From NCBI RefSeq assembly GCF_002854065.1, contig NZ_CP024154.1: a DNA stretch of 64,000 nt. One strand, given 5' to 3'. Of this stretch, positions 6,001-9,000 are shown in pieces. Position numbers: made by a program. The stretch comes from Escherichia coli (GTDB lineage Bacteria > Pseudomonadota > Gammaproteobacteria > Enterobacterales > Enterobacteriaceae). How positions within the stretch are numbered: position 1 is the first letter of the stretch; every line of letters starts with the position of its first letter.

Positions 6001-9000
6001 GTTCTTTCTCCATTGATGGAGAAGCGGATGATTAACCTGTTAATCATCGTTCTCAGGGCGGTTGTTGCTGTGGCTAACGCAGTGATAGCTCTCCTGGAAC
6101 TGATCCGGGAACTGGTTGACTGATAATCCCGGAAACGTACTTAAGGGCAGAGGGTCACCGCCTTCTGCCCTTTAACAAAATATGCTCAGGTTAAAAATCG
6201 AAAACCTTCCTGCACTTCCTGTGCCTGTTCCCGTGAGTCAAACATGAGCCGGCTTTTACCCGGAACTCCCCAGGAAATATATTCTACATCCACCCACCAT
6301 TTTCCGTATTCTTCATACGGTCCGGATATCACTTTAGTGACAAATGCATCAACCAGGTTCATTTTTACACCTTTCTGTTATTCTGCTTATTACGACCAGC
6401 AGACAGCAAATATTAAAAATAACGCGGCGGTAAAAATGGCAATTTTTTCCATGCTGTATTTTTGCCATTTATTTTCTTTGAAATGGTTTTTTTCTTCATA
6501 TCAGCAAATAATTATTTCTTATTCTGTTTTCTCCAGGTCCATGGTGGTACCGGATTTTTATCTGCCCATAATCCCCGCTTCAGGGCGCGGGCATCACGCT
6601 GGAGCGGCGGGAGAGTATAGTCATTATTGTAGTCCGGGTACACCCAGGCAGCGCCGTTACGGACCTGCCAGCGATTTGCTTCTGTGCCGTCAGCGGTATA
6701 GACCCGGCCGAGAATACGGCCATACCTGTCTGTCTGCGCGTATTGCACGGTTACGGGCTTTCCGGCCACCAGGTCCTTCAGCTGAGTGGCTGACCAGCGT
6801 CCAAAGGGCTGTTTCTTTTCCGGTGCATCAATATTAGCCAGACGGACCCTGACAGGCTTTTTGTCCTGTAATATTTCCAGCGTATCACCATCAAGAACGC
6901 GGATGACGTGCCCCTGAATCTGTGCGGCACAGAGAGAAGCGGAAAAAATAATGGTGAGTGAAAAGATATATTTTATCATTTCATCGTCTCCTTTTTATTT
7001 ATGAAAACAGGTGCAATTAATATTGCGAAATAATAACGTTCAGGTGTTTTTTTTTGGCAGTGTGATACTTCACGCAGGGCATGAATTCCAGTACGCTGAT
7101 ATCCGTGATGATACGGCAACAGATATCCGGTGACGGTATGCAGGAACATATTGATTATCAGATTGAGAAATATCAGTTCAGGGCCAGGAATGAGTCACCG
7201 CGACTGATGCGCCAGTGGGAAGATGTCATGCGTGAATGCCGTGATACCGGAGCAGGAGCCAGGGAGCGGCTGCGGATTGCCTTACTTAATGTTGATTATG
7301 TGACCAGTTTTGAACTGCCGTTTCGTCTGCTGTTAACCCGGACACCGCAGATGATTGACAGCGTGCGGCGGGAATGGCAGCTCAGCCAGAAAAAAGTCGT
7401 ATTCAATGAGCGGCAGCGGGGATGTGTATACAGTCTGCAGAATGACTTATCCGGCGTGCCGGATAGCTTCAGTTACAGTCTTGCGACGCGAATACGGCGG
7501 GTGGACAGCTATGGCATGACGACGCGTTGTTTCACTGATATAGCCGGGCAGGTTAAAGCCCCGACAGCACGGCTGAAACTGGCGCTGGAAAGCGGGTTAA
7601 TTGTCACCGCGCTGGATGGTCTGTTCTGGCTTGGTATTCAACGTATTGCCGCAGATGTGCAGCGGCTGCGTCAGTCCGGAATGACAATCATCACCCGGGA
7701 TGTTGAGGTCTCAGACTCGCTGACCGGAACCACACGGGTTGTTTCCGGGTACAGCCTTTGATTTATGCAACAAAGTATCGCAGCGTCGAATATGAGCTAT
7801 GGCCAGATTTTTGTTAATCGTGGTTGTTGCAACATGTAAGGCGAATGACCACACTATTCTGGCACGCTCGTAATCATGCTGAAATTCTGCTTCCTGTCCT
7901 GCCGTGATGAGTTCCGACCAGGACATACGGCGAAGTGTATGTCTGTCAGTAATATCCGTCATGAGCTCTCAGCCTCCTCCTTCGTATTTCCGTCAGAAAC
8001 ACAAACGCCCCGCAGAGAAAATTCGCCAACATTCTCCTTTTTAATGGCGCGCAATGCATCGCGGCAGGCCCGTTCGGTATGAAAGGCCTGGCTGTGCACC
8101 GCCAGTGTGGGCTGACGGGCATCACCGGAAGAGACATTAAAGGGCGATGAAAGCCAGAAAATCAGTAGCCACATGCGTCACACCTCGTCCTTTTTATGCG
8201 GGTATCTGGACAGAATATTGAGCGCCTGTAATGGCGCTTCATGCATTTCACGGATACAACGGGCATCGGTGATATTTTCCCGGTAATGTGTGGTTTCCAG
8301 CATCATATGATGCATATGGAGCATCCGGGCCAGGGCTGCGCGGAGTTCTTCAATATGTTGTTCATGGGAATGCTGGCGGGGCTGTATCCGGCAGAGAGGG
8401 ATAACCTCCACATCATCCGGGTGCGCGCGAAGCCACGCGTCAGTGACTGCAATGTCGTCAGTGTAAAACCATGTGCCGGATGTCCCGTTGGCCAGAAAAC
8501 GCATTTTCCAGGCTTCTGGGGTGGCGGTTGTGTTGTTATCTTTCATGGTGCCACCACTCATTCAACAGGCTTAATGCTGTCCAGGCGCAGTCTGCTCAGA
8601 CTGCCGTGGCTGCCACAGCGGCGTCCAGTGCTTTTGCTGTAGCACTCCTGCCCCCTGATACACCATGCCGTTGGCGTTTCGTAGAGGCTGACACGTCGGG
8701 TTTTATCTTTAATGATGAGAAGCCCGGTGTGAGTTTTTGTCTTTTTCATCGGTGGGGTACAAACGCAGAGATTTTGTTGTCATCAGTTTTTGCCTGCAGA
8801 GGCCTGAAAAGACAGCGTTTTCAGGCCCTGTTCAGGTTAGTGAATATTCTTGCCTGGCCTTTCGGCAATATCAATCCCCTGAAGTTGCATGGATATCCCA
8901 TGCCCATTGAGCATCTGGCTGTCCATGGAATTGATACCGCATGTCATCATCAGGTTGTAACAAAGCGTACTCAGCATGGTGAGCGCCTCTTCTGAGGATT

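Follow-up and report, generated by a model that had tools for sequence, protein, structure and literature searches.

The window, a stretch of 64,000 nucleotides of Escherichia coli contig NZ_CP024154.1, carries between trbA and nuc a spacer that is not empty (Table 1). It contains dqlB, a DinQ-like type I toxin gene, together with two AgrB-like antisense RNA genes, which were located with Rfam at 5679..5766 and 5374..5461 and are assigned to dqlB. Convergent with dqlB, on the opposite strand, lies a 58-codon open reading frame designated ORF58, and between ORF58 and nuc are the remains of a 36-codon ORF designated pep36, with the stop codon of nuc 12 nt upstream of its ATG on the same strand. 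The DqlB/AgrB pair is a known type I toxin-antitoxin addiction module that has been validated on pOXA-48 (PMC12365149, PMC5066626). It adjoins ORF58 and travels with it as a block in I-complex plasmids, but it is a separate, already-described system: dqlB is found without ORF58 in IncX, IncN, and IncL/M plasmids, with homology to the window ending at position 6183. As such, dqlB is context for the ORF58/pep36 locus and lies outside the finding described here. The GC-rich hairpin between the two convergent genes is probably a shared 3′-end or terminator structure. In its stem, an A-T pair of the IncK2/Z plasmids is replaced by G-C in IncI1 (alignment A2); the hairpin was missed by a consensus terminator scan because it has no U-tract.

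Table 1. Features at and around the ORF58/pep36 locus, numbered as in the window
Feature	Position	Strand	Basis or remark
dqlB, DinQ-like type I toxin gene, convergent neighbor	6028..6123	+	NCBIfam NF041473, E 1e-17, and annotation
GC-rich hairpin between ORF58 and dqlB	6143..6172	.	Read from sequence
ORF58, 58-aa conserved hypothetical protein WP_001054907.1, PHROG 8110 member	6186..6362	-	
Shine-Dalgarno sequence AAAGGTG of ORF58	6368..6374 (plus-strand CACCTTT)	-	Ends 5 nt before the ATG
pep36, most likely a pseudogene in the window; 36-codon ORF split into 28-aa (6413..6499) and 20-aa (6390..6452) frames	6390..6499	-	Conserved ATG at 6497..6499
Frameshift site, G/A run GGAAAAAA, 8 nt	6443..6450	-	Alignment A2 and three-frame translations
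nuc, thermonuclease-family gene	6512..6979	-	Pfam SNase match, E 6.5e-22, and annotation

An initial annotation, made from the sequence alone, had recorded a 58-aa frame with a properly spaced AAAGGTG ribosome binding site and, just upstream, a 20-codon hydrophobic frame lacking an obvious one. Both are present as described. The 58-aa product is MNLVDAFVTKVISGPYEEYGKWWVDVEYISWGVPGKSRLMFDSREQAQEVQEGFRFLT, and at the position of its Shine-Dalgarno sequence IncI1 plasmids have AAAGGA, which is functionally equivalent (alignment A2). The description of both frames as unannotated holds for the peptide and for the gene track then available, and fails for ORF58, which PGAP annotates as the hypothetical protein WP_001054907.1 in NZ_CP024254, a record identical to the window across the 1201 bp compared. 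ORF58 is thus not new: tblastn recovered it from 1813 plasmid records, with the full-length frame in 1740 of these and an annotation in nearly all. The comparison of synonymous with non-synonymous change that had been proposed as a check identified the frame as coding. Between the IncK2/Z allele and three IncI1 alleles dN/dS is 0.044–0.048 (approximately 0.045), and 26 of the 38 differences between the lineages fall in third codon positions. This conservation places ORF58 far beyond chance, and judged by its pattern of sequence change it is a genuine, strongly conserved plasmid and phage gene.

The family to which ORF58 belongs was identified by a significant full-length match to the PHROG 8110 profile (hmmscan, E 2.2e-18), in which residues 1–57 align with positions 1–58 of 59. 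Homologues form 181 representative clusters at E ≤ 1e-3, nearly all 58 aa in length and beginning MNL[VI]D, and full-length examples occur in Pseudomonas, Aeromonas, crAss-like, and Bacteroides phages. The window protein retains all of the near-invariant residues (M1, N2, V8, P15, V26, and G53) in an alignment of 106 members (alignment A1). It has the same length as the members of this MNL[VI]D...YGxWW family, e.g., Pseudomonas phage HU1 BBI47368.1, Aeromonas phage 4L372XY gp175, and Vibrio phage ICP1 ORF214, aligns with them over its full length at 40–55% identity, and has in common with them an N-terminal MNLxD motif, a central YGxWWVxV motif, and an identical predicted fold. Plasmid and phage copies alike are small genes that stand alone within the accessory region of their mobile element. 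They differ in their surroundings, the plasmid copies lying inside the I-complex transfer region with pep36 upstream, whereas the prophage copies adjoin AlpA and integrase genes and have other neighbors. In 79 IMG/VR loci, an AlpA-type gene (excisionase) and an integrase gene were located downstream of the ORF58 homologue, while the upstream neighbors varied and included NinX and a metallophosphatase. A role in a lysis cassette, suggested by an endolysin gene upstream in some Aeromonas phages, was rejected because the neighbors are not consistent.

The AlphaFold model of ORF58 (pLDDT 90) is a small OB-like β-barrel. It differs from the small β-barrels of the OB-fold class, such as eS28, IF1/eIF1A, the PAN N-domain, and SSB/PriB, in several respects. 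Sequence identity is only 2–17%, the model has four strands where the canonical fold closes five into a barrel, with a helix between the third and the fourth, and ORF58 is acidic (net charge −3; family mean −2.5) where those proteins are basic. This acidity does not favor nucleic-acid binding. A PDB search with the ORF58 family profile found no sequence-level relationship to any solved structure; a hit to teneurin YD-repeat hairpins in that search (E ~0.6) reflects similarity of a β-hairpin motif, not homology. Neither ORF58 nor pep36 has a significant family match in Pfam, NCBIfam, or PADLOC, and a literature search by protein accession found no paper. In an I-complex TraDIS paper and a pESBL early-expression paper, the term searches made returned nothing on either ORF.

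The hydrophobic frame takes on a different appearance when related plasmids are compared. Its conserved start is an ATG upstream of the one initially noted, and from there a 36-codon ORF, pep36, encodes MKKKTISKKINGKNTVWEKIAIFTAALFLIFAVCWS in other IncK2/Z plasmids and MRRNNLRRNPHEKNIIWEKIAIITASAFIIFAVLWH in IncI1 plasmids. Intact alleles are present in L004, L088, and L089 (IncK2/Z) and in L005, L092–L096, and L008 (IncI1); by tblastn, the full-length frame occurs in 141 of 356 IncK2/Z-type and 1339 of 1413 IncI1-type records. The hydrophobic stretch is IAIFTAALFLIFAVCW, and the maximum 15-residue Kyte-Doolittle mean of the IncI1-type peptide is 2.79. The two lineages are only 57% identical in this region, with 46 differences in 108 nucleotides, and have kept the same start ATG, stop codon, and length of 108 nt. 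These differences give pS 0.88 and pN 0.31, a pN/pS of 0.35 that points to purifying selection, the two control frames having ratios of 1.29 and 0.87 (permutation P 2e-4; Fisher’s exact P 7e-7); the test rests on a single comparison because only two diverged lineages, IncI1 and IncK2/Z, exist. The 20 transmembrane codons contain eight pure third-position synonymous differences, and the substitutions in this segment are conservative (F/I, A/S, L/A, L/I, and C/L). A pN/pS of 0.35 combined with conservative hydrophobic replacements indicates constraint on the amino acid sequence of pep36 rather than on the act of translation. By the same check, the frame first noted also bears a coding signature, but solely in its place as the 3′ half of pep36; it does not form a gene by itself.

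In every I-complex locus examined, pep36 is located immediately upstream of ORF58 in the same orientation. No homologues were found outside I-complex plasmids, and a search with a 42-aa IncI1 form of the peptide recovered only five near-identical clusters. A general module of membrane peptide plus ORF58 was also considered and rejected, as a small membrane ORF is absent upstream of the ORF58 homologues in 79 non-plasmid loci, the only such arrangement being in L008, an IncI1-like contig. In some IncI1 RefSeq records, ORF58 has been given a spurious 94-aa extension at its N-terminus that overwrites pep36.

In the window, pep36 is interrupted by a single-nucleotide deletion. Plasmids with an intact gene have a G/A run of 9 nt (GGGAAAAAA or GGAAAAAAA) where the window has 8. 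The resulting 20-codon frame encodes MEKIAIFTAALFLIFAVCWS, has nothing resembling a Shine-Dalgarno sequence before its ATG (upstream AAAAATACAGC), overlaps the still-open 28-aa 5′ fragment, and lies 27 nt ahead of the start codon of the co-oriented ORF58. The deletion is found in the independently sequenced plasmids H1 and H2, which are 100% identical to the window across the 1201 bp compared, and 215 plasmid records have this state, matching residues 1–19 only. Overall, at least 60% of IncK2/Z-type records carry a broken pep36, and the lesions are of three independent kinds: the 1-nt deletion of the window, a TGG-to-TGA nonsense mutation (L090), and a frameshift at codon 5 from A7 to A6 (L002 and L091); in pHUSEC2011-1 (L003), a 26-bp deletion removes part of pep36. 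The ATG of the 20-codon ORF is out of frame in plasmids with intact pep36. Because it is in frame only through the 1-nt deletion, the 20-codon ORF is a frameshift remnant rather than an ancestral gene, and because 4 kb contain 70 ORFs of at least 20 aa, its presence has no meaning on its own. Judging from these alignments, the window copy of pep36 is most likely a pseudogene.

The initial annotation likened the hydrophobic product to small membrane toxins or leader peptides; either identity would be tentative. Like enterobacterial type I toxins (DinQ/DqlB, Hok/PndA, TisB, Ldr, and Ibs), pep36 is shorter than 40 aa with one hydrophobic helix, a property of both the 20- and 36-codon peptides, and it is plasmid-borne among dqlB/agrB and hok/pnd loci. 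Unlike them, it lacks a long structured 5′ UTR, carries its charge at the N-terminus and its transmembrane segment at the extreme C-terminus, and is followed by a protein gene in the same orientation. Neither peptide could be placed in a described family of toxins (DinQ/DqlB, Hok, Ldr, Ibs, TisB, ShoB, Zor, and others); NCBIfam and Pfam gave nothing at E ≤ 10 for three 36-aa variants and, for the 20-aa frame, nothing at E ≤ 1. The search for known sRNAs on the strand opposite the hydrophobic peptide was negative, Rfam detecting no RNA family opposite 6363..6511 and only AgrB, at 5374..5766. One weak plus-strand promoter-like site is present at 6255..6283, no more than chance expectation. With respect to a regulatory leader or attenuator, shuffled sequences fold as well as the leader RNA of ORF58 (z −0.07), and the IncK2/Z and IncI1 leaders have different minimum-free-energy structures with no fold in common. 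A conserved hairpin that would sequester the Shine-Dalgarno sequence of ORF58 was not found; in IncI1 this sequence is unpaired in the predicted leader fold.

These observations are probably best accommodated by a joint reading in which ORF58 is a real gene and pep36 an ancestral gene that a frameshift has turned into a pseudogene in the window. It is possible, if rather doubtful, that the hydrophobic frame is no gene anywhere, and that the region is spacer or an untranslated leader of ORF58, following nuc or hha/excA, with a chance AT-rich frame in it. Such a reading would agree with the lack of a Shine-Dalgarno sequence upstream of the pep36 ATG in either lineage, with its near-complete lack of annotation in plasmid records, and with the three different lesions in most IncK2/Z plasmids and the deletion in L003. 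All seven pep36 substitutions among IncI1 variants are non-synonymous, and in simulations of neutral descent the frame stays open in 14% of the descendants. Against it stand the low pN/pS, confined to the pep36 frame while the other two are near 1, the pure third-position differences within the transmembrane codons, and the retention of start, stop, and length across such diverged lineages, a conservation that RNA structure does not explain. That the 20-codon ORF is itself a functional mini-peptide, acting as a small membrane toxin or as a leader controlling ORF58, is very improbable. Its in-frame ATG followed by a 17-residue hydrophobic stretch, its place just upstream of ORF58, and the stable inheritance implied by an exact state common to 215 records would suit such a role, but the ATG owes its frame to the deletion, there is no ribosome binding site, and the frame overlaps the open 28-aa fragment. 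The toxin-model, antisense RNA, and hairpin searches described above were negative, ORF58 is already equipped with a strong Shine-Dalgarno sequence, and no such peptide precedes its homologues in phages.

A functional pair of pep36 and ORF58, e.g., a membrane-active toxin with a protein antidote or regulator whose losses reflect selection against a costly toxin, appears improbable as well. The adjacency and co-orientation of the two ORFs in all I-complex loci that were examined, the confinement of pep36 to this position, at least three independent knockouts of pep36 with the ORF58 protein unchanged, and the presence of other addiction systems around the locus (dqlB/agrB adjoining and Hok/Gef nearby) are consistent with it. 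Conversely, neither protein matches a toxin-antitoxin or defense model, and widespread phage homologues of ORF58 have variable neighbors and no upstream membrane peptide; ORF58 accordingly has an independent function.

Under the favored joint reading, a minus-strand gene string nuc-pep36-ORF58 would have its 3′ end at the hairpin shared with dqlB. ORF58 would be translated from its own strong Shine-Dalgarno sequence into a 58-residue, mostly acidic, cytoplasmic protein with a predicted minimal OB-like β-barrel, one of a large stand-alone family of I-complex conjugative plasmids and many phages and prophages; in prophages it occupies a variable accessory region beside excisionase and integrase genes. 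It may act as an accessory, non-essential mobile-element factor that binds a partner macromolecule, either protein or nucleic acid. pep36 has a basic N-terminus and then a hydrophobic segment of ~17 residues, the 20-codon frame representing its C-terminal transmembrane half. Given the protein-level constraint between IncI1 and IncK2/Z, intact pep36 is probably translated, and its predicted topology is that of a tail-anchored inner-membrane peptide. Through the single-base deletion in the G/A run, the transmembrane segment is cut off from the start codon and the basic N-terminus, and the in-frame ATG of the 20-codon ORF is a by-product. What we infer of the translation of pep36, of its topology in the membrane, and of the biochemical function of the two products goes beyond the observed frames, conservation, selection signatures, frameshift, and predicted fold. 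A further proposal, to which we give little credence, is that pep36 is an unrecognized translated 36-residue tail-anchored membrane peptide of I-complex plasmids that works with ORF58 and is switched off, perhaps reversibly, at homopolymers. The switching tracts may then be the A7 run at codons 2–5 and the G/A run at codons 17–19, and low-level −1 slippage on G-AAA-AAA could restore full-length pep36 from the “off” allele of the window.

In E. coli, Salmonella, and Shigella, the I-complex plasmids (IncI1, IncB/O, IncK, and IncZ) are major vehicles of resistance genes of the ESBL and AmpC types. ORF58 is among their most strongly constrained small genes and is also present in many phages, and its confident structural model and defined family make it a tractable target. 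In practice, the 20-codon ORF should be left out of the gene annotation of the window. As a small membrane-peptide gene missed by annotation pipelines, pep36 would, if recorded, correct IncI1 records and add a candidate to the plasmid-encoded small membrane proteins.

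ORF58, the 58-codon frame in the trbA-nuc spacer, is a genuine, conserved gene, already annotated, from a family widespread among phages and plasmids. The properly spaced ribosome binding site ascribed to it in the initial annotation is present in the sequence. The description as unannotated does not hold for this ORF, since the RefSeq record of a plasmid identical to the window over the 1201 bp compared (NZ_CP024254) lists the identical hypothetical protein (WP_001054907.1), but does hold for the hydrophobic-peptide gene overlapping the neighboring 20-codon frame. ORF58 was found by tblastn in 1813 plasmid records (full length in 1740/1813), and these include two allele groups, one of 345 records at ≥95% identity (IncK2/Z and relatives) and one of 1412 records at 80–90% (IncI1). 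The proposed comparison of synonymous with non-synonymous change identifies the frame as coding: dN/dS across allele groups is 0.044–0.048, and third codon positions hold 26 of the 38 differences between them. An exhaustive profile-free search returned homologues in 181 representative clusters (E ≤ 1e-3), with a length of exactly 58 residues in nearly every case and the consensus MNLxDAxVTxVLxxPYxxYGxWWVxVxYxxxGxxxxTxLMFxTxEEAxxVxxGYxFLx in the family alignment (A1). Full-length homologues are carried by Pseudomonas, Aeromonas, crAss-like, and Bacteroides phages. ORF58 matches PHROG 8110 (E 2e-18), which is annotated as unknown function, and no family covering it was found in Pfam, NCBIfam, or PADLOC.

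Versions of 86–94 aa occur in some IncI1 records; because their added N-terminal part is indel-variable and overlaps another frame while the start shared across the family is conserved, the correct length is 58 aa. PGAP calls a 94-aa extended form (accessions WP_001707309.1 and WP_014640317.1 in IncI1) at 1232..1516 of both IncI1 RefSeq records L092 and L096. The extension of these calls overlaps the frame of pep36, a 36-codon small membrane-peptide ORF, and similar extensions are indel-variable among predicted proteins; the 94-aa annotation appears to rest on a wrongly chosen start codon and to conceal pep36.

An AlphaFold2 model of ORF58 built from A1 is confident (pLDDT 90.5), with three long strands followed by a short helix and one more strand; its BFVD matches are same-size uncharacterised phage proteins, including ICP1 ORF214. 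The protein is acidic (net charge −3; family mean −2.5), and the predicted fold, by itself, would suggest a macromolecule as binding partner. Across 79 IMG/VR loci, most of them high-GC prophages, the homologue directly precedes an AlpA-type regulator or excisionase and a tyrosine integrase, with variable genes upstream of it, NinX and a calcineurin-like phosphatase among them. Many of these loci (L009..L087) have the homologue ~1.5 kb from a contig end and followed by the AlpA-family and tyrosine integrase genes, so that the family sits at the attachment-site end of these prophages. Small early genes surround the homologue in phage HU1 and Aeromonas phages, and the context is that of a stand-alone accessory gene.

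Features of the trbA-nuc region (window coordinates)
Feature	Coordinates	Strand	Description
TrbA	3906..5231	minus	C-terminal run of TETTE repeats, TETTETTETTETTETTETTETTE
47-bp repeat	5368..5414 and 5673..5719		common to both AgrB copies, 89% identity
Second AgrB-like copy	5374..5461		Rfam, 37.4 bits, just below gathering score
AgrB antisense RNA of dqlB	5679..5766	minus	Rfam, 47.7 bits, above gathering score
dqlB	6028..6123	plus	DinQ-like type I toxin gene; NCBIfam NF041473, E 1e-17
GC-rich hairpin	6143..6172		between convergent ORF58 and dqlB genes
ORF58	6186..6362	minus	58 codons; AAAGGTG ending 5 nt before ATG
20-codon frame	6390..6452	minus	encodes MEKIAIFTAALFLIFAVCWS; no Shine-Dalgarno sequence
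nuc			thermonuclease-family gene beside ORF58 in RefSeq annotation of identical plasmid

The plasmids that the window matches are I-complex conjugative plasmids typed IncK2/Z, and in RefSeq the genes of NZ_CP024254 are ordered trbA, dqlB, WP_001054907.1, nuc. Window 5374..6123 contains the whole of a DqlB/AgrB type I toxin-antitoxin locus, of the family defined in PMC5066626; its role as an addiction module was established experimentally on pOXA-48, and 83% of IncB/O/K/Z plasmids are reported to carry it (PMC12365149). Its paired AgrB copies recall the agrA/agrB pair at the E. coli dinQ locus. The hairpin between dqlB and ORF58 has no U-tract on either strand and was therefore missed by the terminator scan; an A-T to G-C double change in its stem between IncK2/Z and IncI1 is consistent with a conserved RNA 3′-end structure. 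The window has a single dqlB (tblastn; window 5100..5800 compared with L001, NZ_CP024254), and L001, which equals the window over 5800..7000, has at 2545..2811 a second, upstream copy, after which comes a remnant, 79% identical, of the ORF58 3′ part and hairpin. Some relatives have therefore either duplicated the dqlB-ORF58 block or acquired it on two occasions. TrbA measures 441 aa in the window and L002 but is shorter in L001 (435 aa) and longer in L004 (444 aa), which suggests a C-terminal tandem repeat of variable length.

The 20-codon hydrophobic frame is likewise in the sequence as first described. Its length by itself is unremarkable, since 70 ORFs in 4 kb reach 20 aa or more, and comparison with related plasmids indicates that it is the frameshifted tail of the unannotated pep36 gene, which emerged from an alignment of the spacer between nuc and ORF58 in different plasmids (A2) and from translation of all frames. 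In other IncK2/Z plasmids the frame extends upstream to an ATG at window 6497..6499, kept in all lineages, and spans 36 codons (MKQKNISKQINGKNTVWEKIAIFTAALFLIFAVCWS in L004, MKKKTISKKINGKNTVWEKIAIFTAALFLIFAVCWS in L088); a collinear ORF, also of 36 codons, is present in IncI1 plasmids (MRRNNLRRNPHEKNIIWEKIAIITASAFIIFAVLWH). A G/A run at window 6443..6450 (GGAAAAAA) is 8 nt long and that of intact alleles 9 nt, and the missing nucleotide leaves pep36 split between a 5′ frame of 28 aa (6413..6499) and the 20-aa frame, whose ATG lies within GCA-TGG codons of intact pep36 and is in frame only via the deletion. This is not a sequencing error, since plasmids sequenced independently share it (NZ_CP024254 and Shigella sonnei NZ_MG299145, 100% identical across the 1201 bp compared), as do 215 plasmid records in total.

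Several observations favor pep36 as a gene. Between IncK2/Z and IncI1, 46 of its 108 nt differ, with ATG, stop codon, and length all retained. The pep36 frame has pS 0.88 and pN 0.31, a ratio of 0.35 (1.29 and 0.87 in the other two frames); when these substitutions were permuted 5000 times, a ratio as low came up in only 0.02% of cases and the frame stayed open in only 14% (Fisher's exact P = 7e-7). Differences at 8 of 20 transmembrane codons are purely synonymous and replacements are conservative, and 1339/1413 IncI1-type records keep the frame intact. Other observations count against a gene. All substitutions among IncI1 variants (7/7) are non-synonymous, and the frame is disrupted in at least 60% of IncK2/Z-type records by three independent lesions, to which a 26-bp deletion in pHUSEC2011-1 is to be added. 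No Shine-Dalgarno sequence precedes the pep36 ATG, which in IncK2/Z lies 12 nt past the nuc stop codon, so that reinitiation is conceivable. Homology searches found no pep36 homologues beyond I-complex plasmids, and NCBIfam and Pfam gave no family match.

Mutations of pep36 in IncK2/Z plasmids (L002, L090, L091; equivalent to window 6443..6499) cluster in two homopolymer tracts, an A7 run in codons 2–5 and the G/A run in codons 17–19. The states of the latter in different plasmids are GGGAAAAAA, GGAAAAAAA, GAAAAAAAA, GGGGAAAAA, and GGAAAAAA, the last four among plasmids of identical ORF58 protein, and the tract looks hypermutable.

The initial annotation had likened the hydrophobic frame to leader peptides and small membrane toxins. 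A leader peptide or attenuator was rejected: the leader fold has a z of −0.07 vs shuffled sequence, no structure is common to the IncK2/Z and IncI1 lineages, and constraint acts on the amino-acid sequence of pep36. The small size and hydrophobicity of pep36 would fit a type I toxin, but none of the known toxin families matches it, Rfam detected no antisense RNA opposite the peptide, and it lacks the long, structured 5′ UTR usually seen at type I toxin loci. The peptide adjoins ORF58 in every locus examined and has been lost repeatedly, as might be expected if the two form a functional pair, a possibility against which stand the phage ORF58 homologues without any such partner.

The first reading of this spacer was thus borne out for ORF58 but not for the 20-codon ORF. 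On the pattern of substitution and disruption, we lean toward pep36 being, or having been, a translated small membrane peptide, dispensable and in decay across several lineages, among them that of the window, where the 20-codon ORF does not merit a gene call.
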